From: Bacillota bacterium
Lineage (GTDB): Bacteria > Bacillota > JAAYKD01
DNA: 64,000 bases
Assembly: GCA_963666425.2 (NCBI GenBank)
Contig: OY762825.2
Coordinates: 1,536,001 to 1,600,000, forward strand
Direction: 5' to 3'
Part shown: positions 1,197-57,540 of the stretch, piece after piece
Layout: each line of letters opens with the position of its first letter
Numbering within the stretch: the stretch's first letter is position 1
Made by a program: the position numbers and the translations under genes
The notes under the pieces: generated by a model
The model's input: only the letters and a program-made list of their open reading frames with translations
What the model was told of the DNA's origin: nothing
The model's database searches: none

Positions 1197-1835
1197 ATTG
1201 TTTCGTTGTTCCGGTCGTTTCGTCGTTTCGCTGTTCCGTCGTTTCGCTGTTCCGTCGTTTCGTTGGTAAGTCGTTGTATCGTTTCGCTGTTTCATTGTTT
1301 CGTTGTTAAGTCGTCAAATCGTTTCGCTGTTTACCCATCATCGTGCAACGATCATGTTGCGTTACGGAACGGTCAAGACCGTTCCCTACCTTTGCCCCAT
1401 CGTTGCATCGTTTCGCTGCTTCATTGTTTCGTTGTTAGGTCGTTCAATCGTTTCGCTGTTTACCCATCATCGCGCAACAATCATGTTGCGTTACGGAACG
1501 GTCAAGACCGTTCCCTACCTTTGCCCCATCGTTGTATCGTTTCGCTGTTTCATTGTTTCGTTGGTAAATCGTCAAATCGTTTCGCTGTTTACCCATCGTT
1601 GTATCGTTTCGCTGTTTCATTGTTTCGTTGTTAGGCCGTCAAATCGTTTCGCTGTTTACCCATCATCGTGCAACGATCATGTTGCGTTACGGAACGGTCA
1701 AGACCGTTCCCTTTGCCCCATCGTTGTATCGTTTCGCTGTTTCGTTGTTCCGTTGTTAGGTCGTCAAATCGTTTCATTGCTTACCCATCATCGTGCAACG
1801 ATCATGTTGCGTTACGGAACGGTCAAGACCGTTCC
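1197..1835 (+). repeat. REP-containing tandem array, segment 1 (129-bp unit with 8-bp sub-repeats)
   Basis: Hairpin GGAACGGTC-AA-GACCGTTCC at 1366, 1495, 1691 and 1816; a second hairpin GCAAC-N6-GTTGC; linkers of degenerate 8-mers (TCGTTTCG, CTGTTTCA, TTGTTTCG). Confidence 0.95.
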
Positions 1836-1853
1836 CTCGTATATACTAGTAGT

Positions 1854-2070
1854 GCCAAGGTAACTCATTTACAGGGTACAGGAAGCGAGCCAAAGCCACT
1901 CTTTAGGTATCCAAGGGGTTTGCCCTTTGTGGTATAATTTTGTCAGGCAGAGGTCAACGTACTGTTCCCTGGGAATCGTTCCTGTGATGTAGAGTGTTGC
2001 CTCTGATCTGACAGAAATCTGCGTATTGGCTGGATAGGGTAAAATCCTTGTATTTCACGCGAGGTTGCAG
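1854..2070 (+). ncRNA. Predicted bridge RNA of IS110 copy 1 (target loop 1941-2013, donor loop 2019-2070; 5' end inferred)
   Basis: Nested stems TGTCAG/CTGACA, CAGAGG/CCTCTG, CAAC/GTTG and GGGAA/TTCCT enclose ACTGTTCCCT (1961-1970) and GATGTAG (1986-1992), which match the insertion sites. A second loop holds TGGCTGG and GCGAG, which match the end junction. Confidence 0.85.
1930..1938 (+). promoter_or_regulatory. Extended -10 (TGnTATAAT) inside the IS left end
   Basis: TGGTATAAT directly before the target-binding stem; no good -35. Confidence 0.4.
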
Positions 2071-2127
2071 CTGTCAGCGTCAGAGAGATCATCCTTTGCC
2101 GCATTCCAGTTTGAGGAGTTGCTGTAA

Positions 2128-3300
2128 ATGATTACTTTTGGCGTAGACATCGGTAAATTCCGTCACCAGGCGATCGCGGTGGACGCCAGTGGTCAAGCGC
2201 TGGCTCCCTCGTTTGCATTTGAAAATTCCGAAGAGGGCTTTCAATTGTTTTTGCAGAAGGTCGCTCTTTACCAAAAGCAAGATGCAATTTGCGTCGGCAT
2301 GGAAGCCACCGGTCATTACTGGCTGAATTTTTATTGTGTTTTACTCGATTTAGGAATTGAATTGCATGTGGTCAATCCCCTGCTCACCGACGCCATACGG
2401 CGCATGTCTGTCCGTAAAACCAAGACGGATACGGTGGATTGCGGTTATATCGCGGATGTGATCCGCATGGGACGTTATTCCGACGTAGCGGTACAAACGG
2501 AGGATGTCCAGAATTTACGCGAGTTATGCCGTTTCCGCTGTTCTCTGGTTGATGAGATTGCAAAGCACAAAAACCATGTAATTGGCGTGCTGGATCATCT
2601 TTTTCCGGAATATCACAAGCTTTTTTCAGATATTTTCGGTAAAACTTCGCTGGAGTTGCTCAGCAAGTATCCGTCACCGGATGCCATTCTGAAGCTCGGC
2701 ACAAAGCGGTTGGCTGATTTTTTAGCGAAGCATTCCCGCGGCAGTTTCGGTGAGGAAAAAGCGCTGGAGATCCGCAGCGCCTGCAAACACACAGTTGGGG
2801 TGAATAGAGCAAATGCTGCTCTATGCTTTGAATTACACCAAACCGTGGATCTGATTCAATTCATTGAAGAACAGATTGACGCAATTGAAAAAAAGATTGA
2901 GCAGATCTATTCCCAATGTGAATGCTATCTGGATACCATTATTGGTGTTGGAGTCACCTCGGCTGCGGTGATCTACTCGGAAATCGGCAATATTGATAAT
3001 TTCGAAAATCCGAAGAAACTGGCGGCATTTGCCGGTATTGACCCTTCGATTAAACAATCCGGTAATTTCACTTCAACGCACAACACGATGTCGAAGCGAG
3101 GCTCACCTTATCTGCGCAGAGCGCTCTGGAATGCCGCAACGGTTGCCGCGCAAAAAGATCCGGTCATGTCTGCTTTTTACCAGAAGAAACGCGACGAAGG
3201 AAAAGATTATATGACGGCAATTGGAGCTGTTACACATAAATTATGCAACATTGTTTTCGCTGTTTTAAGGGATAAAAAGCCTTATGTTCCCAGAATATAA
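2128..3300 (+). CDS. IS110-family DEDD transposase/recombinase
   Basis: GVDIGK, GMEATG and KTDTVD (DEDD tetrad); C-terminal Tnp20-type LAAFAGIDPSIKQSG...SKRGSPYLR. Confidence 0.97.
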   Translation: MITFGVDIGKFRHQAIAVDASGQALAPSFAFENSEEGFQLFLQKVALYQKQDAICVGMEATGHYWLNFYCVLLDLGIELHVVNPLLTDAIRRMSVRKTKTDTVDCGYIADVIRMGRYSDVAVQTEDVQNLRELCRFRCSLVDEIAKHKNHVIGVLDHLFPEYHKLFSDIFGKTSLELLSKYPSPDAILKLGTKRLADFLAKHSRGSFGEEKALEIRSACKHTVGVNRANAALCFELHQTVDLIQFIEEQIDAIEKKIEQIYSQCECYLDTIIGVGVTSAAVIYSEIGNIDNFENPKKLAAFAGIDPSIKQSGNFTSTHNTMSKRGSPYLRRALWNAATVAAQKDPVMSAFYQKKRDEGKDYMTAIGAVTHKLCNIVFAVLRDKKPYVPRI

Positions 3301-3335
3301 TTTTCGTTTTGCCACTTGACGTTTGATAGCTGGCT

Positions 3336-4106
3336 ACCTTTGTCCCATCGTTGTATCGTTTCGCTGTTTCATTGTTTCGGTGTTTCGTTGGTAAGTCGTT
3401 GTATCGTTTCGCTGTTTCATTGTTCTGTTCTTATGTCGTCAAATCGTTTCGTTGTTTACCCATCATCGTGCAACGACCATGTTGCGTTACGGAACGGTCA
3501 AGACCGTTCCCTACCTTTGCCCCATCGTTGTATCGTTTCGCTGTTTCATTGTTTCGCTGTTAGGTCGTCAAATCGTTTCGCTGTTTACCCATCATCGCGC
3601 AACAATCATGTTGCGTTACGGAACGGTCAAGACCGTTCCCTACCTTTGTCCCATCGTTGTATCGTTTCGCTGTTTCATTGTTCCGTTGTTAGGTCGTCAA
3701 ATCGTTTCATTGCTTACCCATCATCGTGCAACGACCATGTTGCGTTACGGAACGGTCAAGACCGTTCCCTACCTTTGCCCCATCGTTGCATCGTTTCGCT
3801 GTTTCATTGTTTCGTTGGTAAGTCGTTGTATCGTTTCGCTGTTTACCCATCATCGTGCAACGATCATGTTGCGTTACGGAACGGTCAAGACCGTTCCCTA
3901 CCTTTGCCCCATCGTTGTATCGTTTCGCTGTTTCATTGTTTCGTTGTTCCGTCGTTGCATCGTTTCGCTGTTCCGGTGTTTCGTTGGTAAGTCGTTGTAT
4001 CGTTTCGCTGTTTCATTGTTCCGTTGTTAGGTCGTCAAATCGTTTCATTGCTTACCCATCATCGTGCAACGACCATGTTGCGTTACGGAACGGTCAAGAC
4101 CGTTCC
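3336..4106 (+). repeat. REP-containing tandem array, segment 2
   Basis: Hairpins at 3491, 3620, 3749, 3878 and 4087 (spacings 129, 129, 129, 209). Confidence 0.95.
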
Positions 4107-4124
4107 CTCGTATATACTAGTAGT

Positions 4125-4341
4125 GCCAAGGTAACTCATTTACAGGGTACAGGAAGCGAGCCAAAGCCACTCTTTAGGTATCCAAGGGGTTTGCCCTTTG
4201 TGGTATAATTTTGTCAGGCAGAGGTCAACGTACTGTTCCCTGGGAATCGTTCCTGTGATGTAGAGTGTTGCCTCTGATCTGACAGAAATCTGCGTATTGG
4301 CTGGATAGGGTAAAATCCTTGTATTTCACGCGAGGTTGCAG
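4125..4341 (+). ncRNA. Predicted bridge RNA of IS110 copy 2
   Basis: Same sequence as copy 1. Confidence 0.85.
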
Positions 4342-4398
4342 CTGTCAGCGTCAGAGAGATCATCCTTTGCCGCATTCCAGTTTGAGGAGTTGCTGTAA

Positions 4399-5571
4399 AT
4401 GATTACTTTTGGCGTAGACATCGGTAAATTCCGTCACCAGGCGATCGCGGTGGACGCCAGTGGTCAAGCGCTGGCTCCCTCGTTTGCATTTGAAAATTCC
4501 GAAGAGGGCTTTCAATTGTTTTTGCAGAAGGTCGCTCTTTACCAAAAGCAAGATGCAATTTGCGTCGGCATGGAAGCCACCGGTCATTACTGGCTGAATT
4601 TTTATTGTGTTTTACTCGATTTAGGAATTGAATTGCATGTGGTCAATCCCCTGCTCACCGACGCCATACGGCGCATGTCTGTCCGTAAAACCAAGACGGA
4701 TACGGTGGATTGCGGTTATATCGCGGATGTGATCCGCATGGGACGTTATTCCGACGTAGCGGTACAAACGGAGGATGTCCAGAATTTACGCGAGTTATGC
4801 CGTTTCCGCTGTTCTCTGGTTGATGAGATTGCAAAGCACAAAAACCATGTAATTGGCGTGCTGGATCATCTTTTTCCGGAATATCACAAGCTTTTTTCAG
4901 ATATTTTCGGTAAAACTTCGCTGGAGTTGCTCAGCAAGTATCCGTCACCGGATGCCATTCTGAAGCTCGGCACAAAGCGGTTGGCTGATTTTTTAGCGAA
5001 GCATTCCCGCGGCAGTTTCGGTGAGGAAAAAGCGCTGGAGATCCGCAGCGCCTGCAAACACACAGTTGGGGTGAATAGAGCAAATGCTGCTCTATGCTTT
5101 GAATTACACCAAACCGTGGATCTGATTCAATTCATTGAAGAACAGATTGACGCAATTGAAAAAAAGATTGAGCAGATCTATTCCCAATGTGAATGCTATC
5201 TGGATACCATTATTGGTGTTGGAGTCACCTCGGCTGCGGTGATCTACTCGGAAATCGGCAATATTGATAATTTCGAAAATCCGAAGAAACTGGCGGCATT
5301 TGCCGGTATTGACCCTTCGATTAAACAATCCGGTAATTTCACTTCAACGCACAACACGATGTCGAAGCGAGGCTCACCTTATCTGCGCAGAGCGCTCTGG
5401 AATGCCGCAACGGTTGCCGCGCAAAAAGATCCGGTCATGTCTGCTTTTTACCAGAAGAAACGCGACGAAGGAAAAGATTATATGACGGCAATTGGAGCTG
5501 TTACACATAAATTATGCAACATTGTTTTCGCTGTTTTAAGGGATAAAAAGCCTTATGTTCCCAGAATATAA
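4399..5571 (+). CDS. IS110-family transposase/recombinase
   Basis: Protein identical to 2128..3300. Confidence 0.97.
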   Translation: MITFGVDIGKFRHQAIAVDASGQALAPSFAFENSEEGFQLFLQKVALYQKQDAICVGMEATGHYWLNFYCVLLDLGIELHVVNPLLTDAIRRMSVRKTKTDTVDCGYIADVIRMGRYSDVAVQTEDVQNLRELCRFRCSLVDEIAKHKNHVIGVLDHLFPEYHKLFSDIFGKTSLELLSKYPSPDAILKLGTKRLADFLAKHSRGSFGEEKALEIRSACKHTVGVNRANAALCFELHQTVDLIQFIEEQIDAIEKKIEQIYSQCECYLDTIIGVGVTSAAVIYSEIGNIDNFENPKKLAAFAGIDPSIKQSGNFTSTHNTMSKRGSPYLRRALWNAATVAAQKDPVMSAFYQKKRDEGKDYMTAIGAVTHKLCNIVFAVLRDKKPYVPRI

Positions 5572-5606
5572 TTTTCGTTTTGCCACTTGACGTTTGATAG
5601 CTGGCT

Positions 5607-5796
5607 ACCTTTGCCCCATCGTTGCATCGTTTCGCTGTTTCATTGTTTCGTTGGTAAGTCGTTGTATCGTTTCGCTGTTTCATTGTTCCGTTGTTAAGTC
5701 GTTGTATCGTTTCGCTGTTTCATTGTTTCGCTGTTAAGTCGTTGTATCGTTTCGCTGTTTACCCATCATCGTGCAACGATCATGTTGCGTTACGGA
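5607..5796 (+). repeat. REP-containing tandem array, terminal segment
   Basis: Same 8-mer linker and GCAAC hairpin; breaks off at GCGTTACGGA, just as the next REP hairpin would begin. Confidence 0.9.
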
Positions 5797-34167: not shown

Positions 34168-37100
34168 TTACACTGCTTTCATCTCCAGCAGAACCCTGCT
34201 ATCTCCCACCGCTACTTCTCTGCTGTTCGGCCAGCCCTGTGCTGTCAACAGCAGCGAATCTGTCAAAGTCTCCTGCTGCAGTTGCTTGCCGAAACGCTCG
34301 ATGGCCTGCCGGATGGCCGGCTCTGCCGACGAAACGCTGAGCTGGATGTGCATCTCAATTTGCAAACCGATCTCTTTGCGCATCACCTGGCACTGCCGCA
34401 AAACCTCCCGGTAATATCCTTCCTCTACCAAAGTGTCCGTCAGCACGGTATCGAGCGCGACCTGTAAGGCGCCGTCTTTCGCTAAAAGAATCCCTGCTTT
34501 GCTCTCCTGCTTGACGGTAAAGAGTTCCGCTGCCAGAGGCTGATCGTAATCGGTCAGGTTCACCGCCTTACCGGCCAAAACGCTGCACGCTGCCTGTTCC
34601 TGCTCTGCCGCAGAGGCTGTCTGCAGCAATTGCTGAACTTTGTGTAAATCGGTTTTCAAGATCTGTCCGGCCGTCCTGAAATTTAAACTTAAGCGATTGC
34701 TTTGCAATTGCGCGGCATCGGTCAAAAAGACAAGTTGTTTGACATTTAACTCATCCAAAATGATTGCTTCATAGAGCCGAATCGCGGCCGCCGCTTCCGG
34801 CTGGCAGACGAGATAGAGAACGGCCAAGGGCTGACGAACTTTGATCTGCGCTTCATTGCGCAGCTTCAGCGCCAAGGTAACCACCTGCCGTGCCACTTCA
34901 GCCTGCTGCAGACGGTTAGAGTCGGTTGCTGCCACAGCGGGGAAATCGCTGAGATGGACAGAAGCAGTTTCCTGCGGTTCGTAAACGCGGATCAAATCCT
35001 GCCAGAGAGACTCCGTCAGGAAGGGCAGGATCGGCGCCATGATTTGAATCATTGTTTTGATCGCACGGTAGAGCACCGTAAAGGCGGCGCTCTCTTCCTG
35101 CCAGAAACGGCGGCGATTGCTGCGCACATACCAATTGGAAAGGTCCTCTACACAGAGTTCGAAGGCTTTGACCACGTCGGAGGTCTTATAATTTTCATAG
35201 GCTGCTTTTGCGTCCGCGCTGAATTTAGCGATGCGCGCTGCCAGCCAGTGATCGCTTTCCTGCCAACCCGTCTCGCAGTGTAAATCGACCTGACTCAGAG
35301 AAGCGTAGGTCTCGAAGAAGACGCAGATTTGCCAGAAACCCATGATTTTACGTTTGGCCTCTTCGCCTAAAGTATAGCCAAAACGCACATCGCTGGCCGT
35401 ACCGGCTCCGGCAAAGAGATAACGAATCACATCCGCTCCCAGCCGGTCTGCCGCTTCATCAAAGCGGATCATGAAACCGGTTTTGGAAAAATGGGTGCCG
35501 TCTTCCGAAACCACGCTGCTGTAGCCCAGGACGCGTTCATACGGCGCCCGGCCGGTCAGCGTGACGCTCATGAACAACTGCGAATAAAACCAGAGGCGCA
35601 CTTGCTCCTGCATTTCCGTCACCCATTCGGCCGGAAACCAACGCTGCCATTCTTCGCGGTTGCTGAAATAGCCAAGGGTGGAAAAGGGAACGATGCCGGC
35701 ATCCAGCCAGACATCGCCGACTTCCGTGATACGCTGCACCGGAGCGCCGCAATGCGGGCAGGTGATGCGGATGCTGTCGATCCAGGGCCGATGCAGCTCG
35801 GGTAAGTCGTCTACCGCCGGACCGCCCAGTTCGCGCAGCTCGGCCTTGGAACCGACCACCGTCAGATGACCGCACTGTTCGCAGGGGTAGAAGGGCAAAG
35901 GTAAACCATAATAACGCTTGCGGGAGATATTCCAATCGCCCATATTCTGCAGCCAATCCTCCATCCGCTTGCCGATATGGGCGGGTTCCCATTTGACCGT
36001 CCGGGCAGCTCCCAGCAATTTTGGCCGAATGGCATCGGTGCGAATCACCCAGGAAGGTACCAGGCGGAAGAGTACTTCCTGCTTACAGCGCCAGCAGACC
36101 GGATAGGAGTGCGTATACTCCATTGTTTTATACAGTTTACCCGCCTGCTGCAGCTGAGCAAAGATCACCGGTGCGGCTTCTGCCGCGGTTAACCCTTGGA
36201 AAGGCGCATACTCCGCCGTTAAAATGCCGTTATCGTCAATCGGACAAAGCTGCGGCAGCTGCAGTTTTTGCCCCAATTCAAAGTCTTCCGCTCCGCAGCC
36301 GGGGGCGATATGCACGACGCCGCTGCCTTCTTCCGCCGCAACATCCTCCCAAGCAACAATACGATGTTCAAAATTCTGCAGCTCAAGCTCCGGAAAACAG
36401 GTTTCATAATGCAATCCCACCAGTTCAGTCCCCGGTAAAAGACGCAAGACCTGTTTTTCGCCGTCAATGTATTTCAAGGCGGTTTTCGCCAGCACCAGCG
36501 GTCTCGCCGCACCGGGCAGCTGCACCAGGGCATAGGTCAGAGACGGATTGACCGCCAGGGCCACATTGGCCGTCAAGGTCCAGGGTGTGGTGGTCCAAAC
36601 CAGGATATCGAAGTTTTGCTCCTGCACCGGCAATTTAACAAAGACCGAGGTATGGGTTACTTCGCGATGAGAGCCGGACATCTCATGCTCGGACAGCGAG
36701 GTACCGCAGCGCGGACACCAGGGTACCGGTCGGTAACTTTTATCCAGCCAGCCATTCTCAGCGCAGGTCTTTAAAAAATACCAGATGGCTGTGATGTTTT
36801 CGTCCGTATGGGTGAAATAAGAATGCTCCCAGTCCATCCATTGACCCAAGCGGATGGATTGCTGTGTAATGATACCGGAATATTTGGCAACCCGCTCTTC
36901 ACACTTGCGGGTGAAACGGTCCATGCCATAGGCTTCAATATCGCGTTTGCCGGCAAAGCCCAATTCTTTCTCCACTTCCACCTCAACCCACAGGCCCTGC
37001 GCATCAAAGCCGTTGCGGTAAAGACAGCTTTGTCCGTTCATTGCCTTGTAACGCAGTGTGATATCCTTTAAGCTGCGGCCCCAGGCATGATGCACACCCA

Positions 37101-37248
37101 TGGGATTATTGGCTGTGATCGGTCCATCGATGAAGCGGAACGGTTTACCGTTTTTGTTTTTTTCCTGTAAGGCAGCAAAGGTTTGCTCATCCTGCCATAA
37201 TTTCAGGATCTCCTGTTCCATCTGGGGAAAATCCAGTGTGTTTTTCAT
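34168..37248 (-). CDS. ileS: Isoleucine--tRNA ligase, type 2
   Basis: DGPITAN, WTTTPWTL, DWNISRKRY; Ile-specific T-box upstream; start taken at MKNTLDF. Confidence 0.93.
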   Translation of the reverse strand: MKNTLDFPQMEQEILKLWQDEQTFAALQEKNKNGKPFRFIDGPITANNPMGVHHAWGRSLKDITLRYKAMNGQSCLYRNGFDAQGLWVEVEVEKELGFAGKRDIEAYGMDRFTRKCEERVAKYSGIITQQSIRLGQWMDWEHSYFTHTDENITAIWYFLKTCAENGWLDKSYRPVPWCPRCGTSLSEHEMSGSHREVTHTSVFVKLPVQEQNFDILVWTTTPWTLTANVALAVNPSLTYALVQLPGAARPLVLAKTALKYIDGEKQVLRLLPGTELVGLHYETCFPELELQNFEHRIVAWEDVAAEEGSGVVHIAPGCGAEDFELGQKLQLPQLCPIDDNGILTAEYAPFQGLTAAEAAPVIFAQLQQAGKLYKTMEYTHSYPVCWRCKQEVLFRLVPSWVIRTDAIRPKLLGAARTVKWEPAHIGKRMEDWLQNMGDWNISRKRYYGLPLPFYPCEQCGHLTVVGSKAELRELGGPAVDDLPELHRPWIDSIRITCPHCGAPVQRITEVGDVWLDAGIVPFSTLGYFSNREEWQRWFPAEWVTEMQEQVRLWFYSQLFMSVTLTGRAPYERVLGYSSVVSEDGTHFSKTGFMIRFDEAADRLGADVIRYLFAGAGTASDVRFGYTLGEEAKRKIMGFWQICVFFETYASLSQVDLHCETGWQESDHWLAARIAKFSADAKAAYENYKTSDVVKAFELCVEDLSNWYVRSNRRRFWQEESAAFTVLYRAIKTMIQIMAPILPFLTESLWQDLIRVYEPQETASVHLSDFPAVAATDSNRLQQAEVARQVVTLALKLRNEAQIKVRQPLAVLYLVCQPEAAAAIRLYEAIILDELNVKQLVFLTDAAQLQSNRLSLNFRTAGQILKTDLHKVQQLLQTASAAEQEQAACSVLAGKAVNLTDYDQPLAAELFTVKQESKAGILLAKDGALQVALDTVLTDTLVEEGYYREVLRQCQVMRKEIGLQIEMHIQLSVSSAEPAIRQAIERFGKQLQQETLTDSLLLTAQGWPNSREVAVGDSRVLLEMKAV

Positions 37249-37397
37249 TTTTCTGCACCCTCTCTTGTTCTTCAATTTAAAAATAACAGCCAAAATCCAG
37301 AATCATCCCGGCTCTGTTCAGCAAACTGCCCATTGCCTAATCGCCTCCTTCTCGGTGAGACCGCCGGCTCTGCAACGCCAAGATCCGCTGAGGATAT

Positions 37398-53864: not shown

Positions 53865-53972
53865 TGATATCATTTTCCACTGTGTAGGAATTATTACGCC
53901 CTTTGAAGAAATGATCAAGCAATTGGCGGGAAGAGGAAGCGTCCGCAACCTGTCAAAGAAGGAAGCACCCGC

Positions 53973-54168
53973 TCAAGTACATTGGGCAGAACCAACAAAA
54001 TAGATAGGTAGACCGATCAAGCACACTGGGCAAAACCAACAAAATGTAGAAGCAAACCGATCAAACACATTGGCCGAACCAACAAAAATATAAAGCAAAC
54101 CGATCAAGCGCATTGGGCAGAACCAACAATAATATAAAGCAAGCCGATGAAGCACATTGGGCAGATGT
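53973..54168 (+). repeat. Degenerate ~44-bp tandem repeat (about 4.3 copies)
   Basis: ACATTGGGCAGAACCAACAAAATA...CCGATCAAGC units ending in GGGCAGATGT-AG at the IS end. Confidence 0.9.
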
Positions 54169-54203
54169 AGCCAGCTATCAAACGTCAAGTGGCAAAACGA
54201 AAA

Positions 54204-55376
54204 TTATATTCTGGGAACATAAGGCTTTTTATCCCTTAAAACAGCAAAAACAATGTTGCATAATTTATGTGTAACAGCTCCAATTGCCGTCATATAATCT
54301 TTTCCTTCGTCGCGTTTCTTCTGGTAAAAAGCAGACATGACCGGATCTTTTTGCGCGGCAACCGTTGCGGCATTCCAGAGCGCTCTGCGCAGATAAGGTG
54401 AGCCTCGCTTCGACATCGTGTTGTGCGTTGAAGTGAAATTACCGGATTGCTTAATCGAAGGGTCAATACCGGCAAATGCCGCCAGTTTCTTTGGATTTTC
54501 GAAATTATCAATATTGCCGATTTCCGAGTAGATCACCGCAGCCGAGGTGACTCCAACACCAATAATGGTATCCAGATAGCATTCACATTGGGAATAGATC
54601 TGCTCAATCTTATTCTCAATTGCGTCAATCTGTTCTTCAATGAATTGAATCAGATCCACGGTTTGGTGTAATTCAAAGCATAGAGCAGCGTTCGCTCTAT
54701 TCACACCAACAGTGTGTCTGCAGGCGCTGCGGATCTCCAGCGCTTTTTCCTCACCGAAACTGCCGCGGGAATGCTTCGCTAAAAAATCAGCCAACCGCTT
54801 TGTGCCGAGCTTCAGAATGGCATCCGGTGACGGATACTTGCTGAGCAACTCCAGCGAAGTTTTACCGAAAATATTGGAAAACAGCTTGTGATATTCCGGA
54901 AAAAGGTGATCCAGCACGCCAATTACATGGTTTTTGTGCTTTGCAATCTCATCAACCAGAGAACAGCGGAAACGGCATAACTCGCGTAAATTCTGGACAT
55001 CCTCCGTTTGTACCGCTACGTCGGAATAACGTCCCATGCGGATCACATCCGCGATATAACCGCAATCCACCGTATCCGTCTTGGTTTTACGGACAGACAT
55101 GCGCCGTATGGCGTCGGTGAGCAGGGGATTGACCACATGCAATTCAATTCCTAAATCGAGTAAAACACAATAAAAATTCAGCCAGTAATGACCGGTGGCT
55201 TCCATGCCGACGCAAATTGCATCTTGCTTTTGGTAAAGAGCGACCTTCTGCAAAAACAATTGAAAGCCCTCTTCGGAATTTTCAAATGCAAACGAGGGAG
55301 CCAGCGCTTGACCACTGGCGTCCACCGCGATCACCTGGTGACGGAATTTACCGATGTCTACGCCAAAAGTAATCAT
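54204..55376 (-). CDS. IS110-family transposase/recombinase
   Basis: About 99% identical to copy 1; motifs intact. Confidence 0.97.
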   Translation of the reverse strand: MITFGVDIGKFRHQVIAVDASGQALAPSFAFENSEEGFQLFLQKVALYQKQDAICVGMEATGHYWLNFYCVLLDLGIELHVVNPLLTDAIRRMSVRKTKTDTVDCGYIADVIRMGRYSDVAVQTEDVQNLRELCRFRCSLVDEIAKHKNHVIGVLDHLFPEYHKLFSNIFGKTSLELLSKYPSPDAILKLGTKRLADFLAKHSRGSFGEEKALEIRSACRHTVGVNRANAALCFELHQTVDLIQFIEEQIDAIENKIEQIYSQCECYLDTIIGVGVTSAAVIYSEIGNIDNFENPKKLAAFAGIDPSIKQSGNFTSTHNTMSKRGSPYLRRALWNAATVAAQKDPVMSAFYQKKRDEGKDYMTAIGAVTHKLCNIVFAVLRDKKPYVPRI

Positions 55377-55433
55377 TTACAGCAACTCCTCAAACTGGAA
55401 TGCGGCAAAGGATGATCTCTCTGACGCTGACAG

Positions 55434-55650
55434 CTGCAACCTCGCGTGAAATACAAGGATTTTACCCTATCCAGCCAATACGCAGATTTCTGTCAGATCA
55501 GAGGCAACACTCTACATCACAGGAACGATTCCCAGGGAACAGTACGTTGACCTCTGCCTGACAAAATTATACCACAAAGGGCAAACCCCTTGGATACCTA
55601 AAGAGTGGCTTTGGCTCGCTTCCTGTACCCCGTAAATGAGTTACCTTGGC
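55434..55650 (-). ncRNA. Predicted bridge RNA of IS110 copy 3
   Basis: Guide loops identical to copy 1. Confidence 0.85.
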
Positions 55651-55668
55651 ACTACTAGTATATACGAG

Positions 55669-55866: not shown

Positions 55867-55901
55867 AGCCAGCTATCAAACGTCAAGTGGCAAAACGAAA
55901 A

Positions 55902-57074
55902 TTATATTCTGGGAACATAAGGCTTTTTATCCCTTAAAACAGCAAAAACAATGTTGCATAATTTATGTGTAACAGCTCCAATTGCCGTCATATAATCTTT
56001 TCCTTCGTCGCGTTTCTTCTGGTAAAAAGCAGACATGACCGGATCTTTTTGCGCGGCAACCGTTGCGGCATTCCAGAGCGCTCTGCGCAGATAAGGTGAG
56101 CCTCGCTTCGACATCGTGTTGTGCGTTGAAGTGAAATTACCGGATTGCTTAATCGAAGGGTCAATACCGGCAAATGCCGCCAGTTTCTTTGGATTTTCGA
56201 AATTATCAATATTGCCGATTTCCGAGTAGATCACCGCAGCCGAGGTGACTCCAACACCAATAATGGTATCCAGATAGCATTCACATTGGGAATAGATCTG
56301 CTCAATCTTATTCTCAATTGCGTCAATCTGTTCTTCAATGAATTGAATCAGATCCACGGTTTGGTGTAATTCAAAGCATAGAGCAGCGTTCGCTCTATTC
56401 ACACCAACAGTGTGTCTGCAGGCGCTGCGGATCTCCAGCGCTTTTTCCTCACCGAAACTGCCGCGGGAATGCTTCGCTAAAAAATCAGCCAACCGCTTTG
56501 TGCCGAGCTTCAGAATGGCATCCGGTGACGGATACTTGCTGAGCAACTCCAGCGAAGTTTTACCGAAAATATTGGAAAACAGCTTGTGATATTCCGGAAA
56601 AAGGTGATCCAGCACGCCAATTACATGGTTTTTGTGCTTTGCAATCTCATCAACCAGAGAACAGCGGAAACGGCATAACTCGCGTAAATTCTGGACATCC
56701 TCCGTTTGTACCGCTACGTCGGAATAACGTCCCATGCGGATCACATCCGCGATATAACCGCAATCCACCGTATCCGTCTTGGTTTTACGGACAGACATGC
56801 GCCGTATGGCGTCGGTGAGCAGGGGATTGACCACATGCAATTCAATTCCTAAATCGAGTAAAACACAATAAAAATTCAGCCAGTAATGACCGGTGGCTTC
56901 CATGCCGACGCAAATTGCATCTTGCTTTTGGTAAAGAGCGACCTTCTGCAAAAACAATTGAAAGCCCTCTTCGGAATTTTCAAATGCAAACGAGGGAGCC
57001 AGCGCTTGACCACTGGCGTCCACCGCGATCGCCTGGTGACGGAATTTACCGATGTCTACGCCAAAAGTAATCAT
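55902..57074 (-). CDS. IS110-family transposase/recombinase
   Basis: Differs from copy 3 by one residue (A vs V at position 15). Confidence 0.97.
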   Translation of the reverse strand: MITFGVDIGKFRHQAIAVDASGQALAPSFAFENSEEGFQLFLQKVALYQKQDAICVGMEATGHYWLNFYCVLLDLGIELHVVNPLLTDAIRRMSVRKTKTDTVDCGYIADVIRMGRYSDVAVQTEDVQNLRELCRFRCSLVDEIAKHKNHVIGVLDHLFPEYHKLFSNIFGKTSLELLSKYPSPDAILKLGTKRLADFLAKHSRGSFGEEKALEIRSACRHTVGVNRANAALCFELHQTVDLIQFIEEQIDAIENKIEQIYSQCECYLDTIIGVGVTSAAVIYSEIGNIDNFENPKKLAAFAGIDPSIKQSGNFTSTHNTMSKRGSPYLRRALWNAATVAAQKDPVMSAFYQKKRDEGKDYMTAIGAVTHKLCNIVFAVLRDKKPYVPRI

Positions 57075-57131
57075 TTACAGCAACTCCTCAAACTGGAATG
57101 CGGCAAAGGATGATCTCTCTGACGCTGACAG

Positions 57132-57348
57132 CTGCAACCTCGCGTGAAATACAAGGATTTTACCCTATCCAGCCAATACGCAGATTTCTGTCAGATCAGA
57201 GGCAACACTCTACATCACAGGAACGATTCCCAGGGAACAGTACGTTGACCTCTGCCTGACAAAATTATACCACAAAGGGCAAACCCCTTGGATACCTAAA
57301 GAGTGGCTTTGGCTCGCTTCCTGTACCCCGTAAATGAGTTACCTTGGC
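57132..57348 (-). ncRNA. Predicted bridge RNA of IS110 copy 4
   Basis: Guide loops identical to copy 1. Confidence 0.85.
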
Positions 57349-57366
57349 ACTACTAGTATATACGAG

Positions 57367-57456: not shown

Positions 57457-57540
57457 TATACTAGTCGTGCCAAGGTAACTCATTGACAGGGTACAAGAAA
57501 CGAGTCAGAGCAACTCTTTTTAGGTATCCAAGCGGGTTGA
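57457..57540 (+). mobile_element. Truncated left-end relic of a related IS110
   Basis: Aligns by eye to 1842-1922 with about 9 substitutions and a 2-nt indel. Confidence 0.8.

Follow-up and report, generated by a model that had tools for sequence, protein, structure and literature searches.

Does the non-coding left end of a small insertion sequence from a poorly sampled bacterial lineage encode the RNA with which the element would select its insertion sites? The question is raised by the window analyzed here, a stretch of 64,000 nucleotides (nt) of contig OY762825.2 (assembly GCA_963666425.2, positions 1,536,001 to 1,600,000), in which an element at 1838-3335 comprises a 290-nt non-coding left end, a single gene at 2128-3300 for a recombinase of 390 amino acids (aa), and a 35-nt right end. 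An earlier note, made from the sequence alone, had read this left end as that of an IS110 element carrying a bridge RNA with two guide-bearing loops, one for the target and one for the donor. We consider it very likely that the element is an active IS110-group insertion sequence and that its left end encodes a bridge RNA extending roughly from 1945 to 2077-2105. The proposed two-loop architecture is borne out by the protein families, by the alignment with IS621 and ISCro4, and by covariation of both stems and guides among relatives, while statements about transcription, RNA ends, recombinase binding, catalysis and reprogrammability are predictions from the sequence.

The element, its recombinase and its insertion sites

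The recombinase combines a match to PF01548 (DEDD_Tnp_IS110; 1.8e-40, residues 5-160) with one to PF02371 (Transposase_20; 8.2e-26, residues 268-352), and scores 263.4 bits against NCBIfam NF033542, "IS110 family RNA-guided transposase", for which the cut-off is 140. Homologues found by protein search number in the thousands; the only relatives with a solved structure in the PDB are IS621 (3.9e-21) and ISCro4 (5.4e-21), both of which are bridge recombinases. The candidate catalytic residues D7, E59, D101, D104 and S311 are invariant in 37 homologous proteins, and the IS621 motifs EATG, KTDTVD and ESGS align with E59, D101, D104 and S311, D7 lying outside the aligned stretch. In the IS1111 group, which belongs to the same protein family and has RNA-selected targets (seekRNA), the guide RNA is found beyond the 3' end of the gene. 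Because the right end of the present element is only 35 nt long and the structured RNA lies upstream of the gene, we assign it to the IS110 group.

The genome (3.2 Mb in 18 contigs) contains 10 full-length copies, four of them in the window, and one 83-nt fragment. All 10 recombinase reading frames are intact, with 0-4 amino-acid differences between copies, and 27 of 1498 nt vary, of which 5 fall in the left end and the other 22 in the gene, leaving the right end invariant, in agreement with the earlier description of a multi-copy, recently active element. Each copy begins with CGTATATAC and finishes with GATAGCTGGCT; the element ends read CGTATA...GCTGGCT in 10/10 cases. As is typical of the IS110 group, insertion is site-specific, terminal inverted repeats are lacking, and nothing beyond CT is duplicated at the target. 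One copy (contig C1, 92799-94296) has A at the equivalent of 2070, by which one pair of the donor-loop closing stem is lost. A genome of the same genus holds a single 97%-identical copy at another hairpin, and none of its 45 differences falls in the 290-nt left end; a search of a plasmid collection returned no near match to the element. The 83-nt fragment, at window positions 57457-57539 (+), is 87% identical to left-end positions 5-85, is oriented opposite to copy 4 and adjoins a hairpin of variant sequence, GGAATGGTC..GACCATTCC; the fragment has the appearance of an insertion, older or related, that has decayed to a remnant.

All 10 insertions are found directly after a perfect hairpin resembling repetitive extragenic palindromic (REP) sequences, followed by CT: GGAAC[G/A]GTC-AA-GAC[C/T]GTTCC-CT, or, written through, GGAAC[G/A]GTCAAGAC[C/T]GTTCC-CT. 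To the right of the core, AC[A/C]T follows at 10/10 copies. Since free units of the same repeat read GTTCC-CT-AC (in the tandem array that holds copies 1 and 2, ...GTTCC-CT-ACCTTTG), the crossover can be placed at a single CT core, with nothing else duplicated. The genome has 150 occurrences of the 10-mer AC[C/T]GTTCCCT: 10 lie inside the element, where they are the guide itself, 10 are at occupied junctions, and 121 are unoccupied and followed by AC; the whole hairpin with CT is present at 130 sites. The window alone has 16 occurrences of the 10-mer versus 0.16 expected, a number reached in 0/100 shuffles.

The array around copies 1 and 2 (window 1206-1837, 3336-4108 and 5607-5760) consists of ~129-nt units with 40-nt sub-repeats, each unit terminating in the target hairpin and CT-AC, and the two copies occupy two different units; the long open reading frames listed within it are repeat artefacts. 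A second tandem repeat, with a 44-nt unit (4.5 copies, 80% matches), lies at 53969-54165 and adjoins the right flank of copy 3.

Guides and their covariation with targets and ends

The strings quoted in the earlier note all lie where it had placed them, including TGTCAG (1941-1946), ACTGTTCCCT (1961-1970), GATGTAG (1986-1992) and CTGACA (2008-2013), and its match counts for the guides are correct. The left target guide reproduces the top-strand sequence of the left flank and core, at 10/10 positions for copies 3 and 4 (flank ACTGTTCCCT) and at 9/10 for copies 1 and 2 (ACCGTTCCCT), and for this reason it would pair with the bottom strand. Counted as RNA-DNA pairs, 10/10 positions are matched at 10/10 insertion sites. 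The variable position is guide position 3 (U, 1963), which forms U-A with the ACTG variant of the target (2 sites); at the 8 sites with the ACCG variant, 7 copies use a U-G wobble, while the remaining one, copy d (contig C1, 706185-707682, outside the window), carries C where copy 1 has T (1963) and matches exactly. The right target guide is complementary at 7/7 positions to copy 3 (CT-ACATC), at 6/7 to copy 4 (CT-ACATT), and over CTAC at copies 1 and 2 (CT-ACCTT). Over all insertions, it forms 7 Watson-Crick pairs at one site and 6 plus one G-T at six sites; at the other three the count is 5, with one G-T and one mismatch.

In the second loop, GGCTGGAT matches the right end AGCTGGCT, and GCGAG matches the left-end CTCGT. 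The corresponding donor DNA is TAGCTGGCT at the right end (3327-3335) and CT-CGT, core plus left end, at 1836-1840, as had been proposed. With TAGCTGG-CT, the left donor guide forms 8/9 pairs, one of them G-T, the exception being an A-G mismatch at the first core base. The polarity is the same in both loops, the 5' side being equal to the top strand and the 3' side complementary to it, and the target loop comes first. An A facing the first donor core base is nearly invariant family-wide, which marks it as a feature of the family and not a defect.

To place these matches in a family context, we used the best 80 of 568 loci (44-64% protein identity) from a profile scan with one genome per species. 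Eight of the 80 were dropped for having less than 240 nt upstream or for being exact duplicates, which left 72 distinct loci; with the window element, the 220 nt upstream of the gene gave 73 left ends, which align throughout. RNAalifold recovered both closing stems, the inner hairpin of the target loop and a linker helix, with compensatory changes at 18/20 pairs. When the structure of the earlier note was imposed on the 73 left ends, 75.2% of cells were paired versus 62.3% in shuffles, and the covariation score was 0.448 versus 0.199 (0/500 shuffles as high), falling to 0.213 or less when the partners were slid. The target-loop closing stem is paired in 89.9% of cells, with both sides changed in 7/10 pairs; the values are 84.2% and 4/4 for the target-loop inner hairpin and 97.6% and 4/4 for the donor-loop closing stem. 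The linker helix, for which RNAalifold pairs alignment columns 170-172 with 290-292 and finds compensatory changes, has a mean duplex energy of −7.31 kcal/mol for cognate strands versus −3.18 kcal/mol for permuted ones (0/500 as low). Varying loop lengths put the alignment out of register at the donor inner hairpin, which therefore could not be scored in the family; its columns are 47.7% paired, a value that is uninformative either way.

One element of the earlier fold did not survive this comparison. The outermost stem, TGTCAG/CTGACA (1941-1946/2008-2013), was rejected as a family feature, its columns being mostly unpaired (56 and 67 of 73 left ends at two pairs); CTGACAG pairs with 2071-2077 instead. 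In the window sequence alone, the outermost stem is possible.

The loop sequences differ between relatives exactly at the expected guide positions. Covariation of guide and target among homologues, which had been set beforehand as a test, was found on both sides of the core. Left flanks agree with their cognate guides at a mean of 7.64/10 positions versus 6.26 for permuted guides, and right flanks at 3.74/7 versus 2.12; on either side, 0/10,000 permutations were as high, also with one locus per distinct guide (48 left, 45 right), although the relatives are not mutually independent and these counts somewhat overstate the significance. The tests scored 56/72 loci on the left and 59/72 on the right, with flanks that are independent of junction placement; the left junction was unplaced in 11/72 (short upstream DNA or a missed guide class), and 5 more had too little flank. 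In the right target, cognate pairs agree in 91% of cases at position 10, in 84% at position 11 and in 57% at position 12, the non-cognate values at positions 10 and 11 being 41% and 33%.

The donor loop follows the ends of its own element. The right-end motif is missing in 8/72 loci, and in 62 of the 64 that could be scored the donor guide hexamer is identical to the right-end hexamer (AGCTGG 41, AGCCGG 10, AGTTGG 10, AGTTAG 1). Of the two exceptions, L018 shows a G-for-A wobble, as does the window element, and L053 is a false motif match caused by its longer element. On the other side, a right donor guide ACGAG, ACAAG, AGTAG or AACAG is accompanied by a left end that opens with CT-CGT, CT-TGT, CT-ACT or CT-GTT, respectively, beside a TATAAT box, a rule followed by 61/63 loci of these four classes (72 loci in all); as the search itself used three guide bases, only the unique placement counts as evidence. 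The spacing of the donor guide differs in one respect: an extra T, donor position 7, stands between the GG block and the CT core in 61/64 relatives, where the handshake base is A or G, and is missing from the window element and L012. Because of this missing T, A1993 of the target-loop handshake is left unpaired here. In the donor-loop handshake, G2064 is able to pair with target position 7 (C).

L053 is one of three copies in a single genome (with L056 and L057) that extend ~1.3 kb further to the left and 0.3 kb further to the right than the standard element, and may represent a larger, cargo-carrying derivative.

Most left flanks of the relatives end in ...CCTCC-CT. The other strand opens with an AGGAGG-like Shine-Dalgarno run in 39/56, and an open frame begins 8-23 nt beyond in 33/56, so that the sub-family appears to land mostly just upstream of the ribosome-binding sites of divergent genes. 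A literature search combining IS110, Shine-Dalgarno and bridge RNA found no description of landing at ribosome-binding sites. The window element differs from most relatives in having a REP-like hairpin as its target.

These pairings suggest how the element would work. In the target loop, the left guide would read the 3' arm of the hairpin; in the donor loop, GGCUGG-AU and GCG-AG would recognize the joined ends GATAGCTGG-CT-CGTAT of an excised circle; and the 390-aa DEDD/Ser recombinase would exchange strands at the common CT core. The natural target is the REP-like hairpin, with ~130 copies in the genome, and the U at guide position 3 would let a single RNA read both its ACCG and ACTG variants. 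The earlier description of the guide positions as ready for reprogramming is a reasonable expectation. All coordinates are collected in Table 1.

Table 1. Window coordinates of the element, its copies and target, and the predicted parts of its bridge RNA (MFE, minimum free energy).
Feature	Position	Strand	Details
IS110-group insertion sequence, copy 1	1838-3335	+	1498 bp including one CT core at 3334-3335
Copy 2	4109-5606	+	identical to copy 1; different unit of the same tandem array
Copy 3	54169-55666	-	target GACTGTTCC-CT-ACATC, fully Watson-Crick to both target guides
Copy 4	55867-57364	-	target GACTGTTCC-CT-ACATT
Target site at copy 1	1816-1837	+	hairpin GGAACGGTC-AA-GACCGTTCC 1816-1835, then CT core 1836-1837
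Left target at copy 1	1828-1837	+	ACCGTTCC-CT
TATATA, -10 half of putative junction promoter	1840-1845	+	partner TTGACG 3316-3321; 16 nt between, across the junction
TGgTATAAT, extended -10-like motif	1930-1938	+	7-10 nt before the target-loop stem
Target-binding loop domain	1948-2005	+	closing stems CAGAGG 1948-1953/CCTCTG 2000-2005 and CAAC 1955-1958/GTTG 1996-1999; MFE fold
Left target guide ACUGUUCC-CU	1961-1970	+	DNA form ACTGTTCCCT = left flank + CT core
Target-loop inner hairpin	1971-1983	+	GGGAA 1971-1975/TTCCT 1979-1983
Right target guide GAUGU-AG	1986-1992	+	complementary to CT-ACATC; handshake AG 1993-1994 follows
Linker strand CUGACAG	2008-2014	+	pairs with CUGUCAG 2071-2077, enclosing the donor loop
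Donor-binding loop domain	2019-2070	+	closing stem CUGC 2019-2022/GCAG 2067-2070
Left donor guide UGGCUGG-AU	2027-2035	+	DNA form TGGCTGGAT; opposite right end TAGCTGG-CT
Donor-loop inner hairpin	2036-2048	+	AGGGU 2036-2040/AUCCU 2044-2048; single-sequence evidence only
Right donor guide GCG-AG	2059-2063	+	5/5 pairs with CT-CGT, one G-T; handshake GU 2064-2065 follows
Distal 3' segment CCUUUGCC	2093-2100	+	able to pair with GGCAGAGG 1946-1953
Recombinase gene	2128-3300	+	390 aa; DEDD RuvC-like domain + Tnp domain
Right end	3301-3335	+	35 nt; contains TTGACG 3316-3321 and left donor GATAGCTGG-CT 3325-3335

Fold, expression and alternative readings

The non-coding left end contains two internal loops, each with a closing stem and an inner hairpin, as is characteristic of a bridge RNA. 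Since CUGACAG (2008-2014) has a conserved partner in CUGUCAG (2071-2077), the donor loop sits on an extended stem. In addition, the 5' end and the distal segment pair better when cognate than when permuted (−12.6 versus −7.5 kcal/mol; 0/300 as low), and this is also true of the part of this pairing outside the target-loop stem (−5.08 versus −3.06; 0/500). With its 5' end thus paired to a stretch that lies 25-45 nt upstream of the start codon, the RNA is probably a closed three-way junction that reaches ~2100, beyond the 2070 of the earlier note, with CCUUUGCC as the probable 3' closing strand. No cognate signal was obtained for a hairpin formed by the distal strand with the post-loop segment (130/300, then 470/500 permutations as low).

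Two candidate promoters could serve this RNA, both identified by reading the sequence and its conservation. The halves of a split promoter lie at the two ends of the element and would be brought together only when it circularizes; the relatives have TTGAC[T/A]-17 nt-TATAAT at the same joint, and a promoter across the junction of right and left ends is known as an IS110 feature (PMC11208160). The extended -10-like motif within the left end may be an internal promoter that would put the RNA 5' end near 1945, and the TGnGATAAT-like columns are at least 90% conserved in the 73 left ends. A promoter and terminator scan of the + strand of the left end found nothing; the motif is not listed there because it has no -35.

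Several observations weigh against a functional bridge RNA at this locus. The right target guide has a mismatch at 3/10 insertion sites, the donor guide has an A facing the first core base, and A1993 faces G at donor position 7, with which it does not pair. The single-sequence fold is unremarkable (z = −1.5), and the MFE structure of 187 nt favours an alternative pairing over the target-loop closing stem, which it leaves open; since this z value is uninformative, the support for the RNA comes from the relatives and not from folding energy. Rfam gave no match at the gathering score over the whole window, and within 1800-2140 only a chance small nucleolar RNA match (E = 9.4) at E up to 10, in a library for which the inclusion of any bridge RNA family is not established. 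The sole match in RNA libraries consists of two contigs, 1810-2024 and 2056-2322, from one wastewater metatranscriptome. The first of these begins 28 nt outside the element, making DNA carry-over possible, and we regard the pair as a weak hint of RNA at most; as the data are contigs, the stop in coverage at 2322 cannot be used as an RNA end. A further run labelled as RNA was rejected as transcript evidence, since its coverage is confined to 2344-2481, with loose ends that resemble adapters; it is probably DNA.

If the left end were a mere 5' untranslated leader controlling recombinase expression, its likeness to the flanks would have to be a relic, such as a captured REP-like piece. In favor of this explanation, the target motif is very abundant (the 150 10-mers counted above), and the conserved -10-like box and the conserved alternative pairings that involve the region just upstream of the start codon could serve regulation. 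A relic, however, would not preserve the strand polarity rule on both loops, nor does it account for relatives that are inserted at very different sequences and carry matching, different loops in the same alignment columns, or for a donor loop that tracks the ends of the element in 62/64 loci; we therefore consider this explanation extremely improbable. It is also very unlikely, in our judgment, that the copies are fossils of an immobile element. Neither a circle junction nor a new insertion has been observed, and DNA runs contained no contig from right end to left end, although as contigs only these provide no evidence of absence. Against immobility stand the intact reading frames with their 0-4 amino-acid differences, the intact guides in all copies, the guide variant of copy d that exactly matches its own site, the occupation of only 10 of about 131 candidate sites, and the 97%-identical copy at a different hairpin in the same-genus genome.

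A different kind of alternative accepts the bridge RNA but gives it a regulated fold. Behind the donor loop, within 2081-2100 (alignment columns 296-333), a conserved AGAGG-like segment (2081-2087) mimics the 5' strand of the target-loop stem, and together with the distal strand (2093-2100) it allows an alternative fold that opens this stem. Segments 2081-2087 and 2093-2100 would then displace both closing strands of the target loop, so that long mRNA-leader transcripts would be blind to the target, with activity limited to a shorter or protein-bound RNA. The 187-nt MFE structure forms exactly such pairings, and cognate strands score lower than permuted ones both for the 5' AGAGG with the distal strand (−3.84 versus −3.41; 0/500 as low) and for the target-loop 3' strand with the post-loop segment (−7.84 versus −6.91; 0/500). 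These effects are small, however, and the covariation is weak because the segments hardly vary. Most of the signal lies in the non-overlapping helices (−5.08 versus −3.06 and −7.31 versus −3.18), which fit a plain three-way junction with an intact target stem, and we think a regulated fold unlikely. We attach a similarly low probability to a composite reading, in which the RNA of the sub-family would have its 5' end paired 25-45 nt upstream of the start codon and so form a closed three-way junction, the AGAGG-like stretch and the distal strand would act as a conserved decoy that opens the target stem and switches between guide and mRNA leader, and the lineage would have been retargeted from Shine-Dalgarno sites to a REP-like hairpin, with donor position 7 and the handshake pair of the target loop lost at the same time.

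Comparison with known bridge recombinases

The host belongs to a Bacillota lineage that has been poorly sampled. For its IleS gene (window 34171-37293, -), the nearest named relatives are Bacillota (Syntrophomonadaceae, Oscillospiraceae, Defluviitaleaceae) at ~57-60% identity, in keeping with the non-enterobacterial host suggested earlier. The element adds a well-supported natural bridge recombinase from a little-known part of this phylum, and with target, donor, guides and likely catalytic residues laid out, it is a candidate orthologue for recombination assays. It also illustrates natural flexibility of the guides, in that wobble pairing lets a single U serve both variants of the target repeat and one copy carries an exact-match guide, and it indicates that the spacing between donor guide block and core can vary by one base between close relatives.

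Bridge RNAs of the IS110 family are catalogued in the thousands (PMC11208160), and large collections of IS110-adjacent RNAs have been compiled. The IS621 system of E. coli (Durrant et al. 2024, PMC11208160; Hiraizumi et al. [quoted passage not shown] The CT core, a split junction promoter that is putative in the window element, the REP-like natural target and the predicted DEDD + Ser chemistry are further likenesses. The two systems also differ. Protein similarity is low, phmmer aligning only residues 33-116 and 220-386; the window protein has 390 aa, compared with 328 residues for the IS621 chain in the PDB, and the left end 290 nt, compared with the 191 nt stated for IS621. Moreover, a further conserved -10-like box stands immediately ahead of the target loop in the window element, the 5' end of its RNA pairs with a distal 3' segment with no separate 5' stem-loop beside the loops, and an A faces the first core base in its donor guide.

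ISPpu10 of Pseudomonas putida, termed a "structure-gated" bridge recombinase, is similar in that it inserts just downstream of a hairpin in the genome, the 3' arm of which serves as left target, and in having many free REP targets in its host, a CT core and a junction promoter, which in the window element is putative (bioRxiv 10.64898/2026.03.19.712850). It differs in host phylum, and the terminator-forming feature described for ISPpu10 is not evident at the window junction, which has no T-run after the hairpin. CazIS110-1 of Caloranaerobacter azorensis, compared by description only, is likewise a Bacillota IS110 element with 10 genomic copies; its description reports a bridge RNA of ~170 nt, target-loop-only (~77 nt) and donor-loop-only (87 nt) species, and copy-out and direct-transfer pathways (bioRxiv 10.1101/2025.10.25.684509). 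The sizes of these RNA species resemble the window domains 1945-2013 and 2008-2077. In mechanistic type, the window element is that of IS621; it leaves the current picture of bridge RNA function unchanged and stands as a further example beside IS621, ISCro4, ISPpu10 and CazIS110-1.

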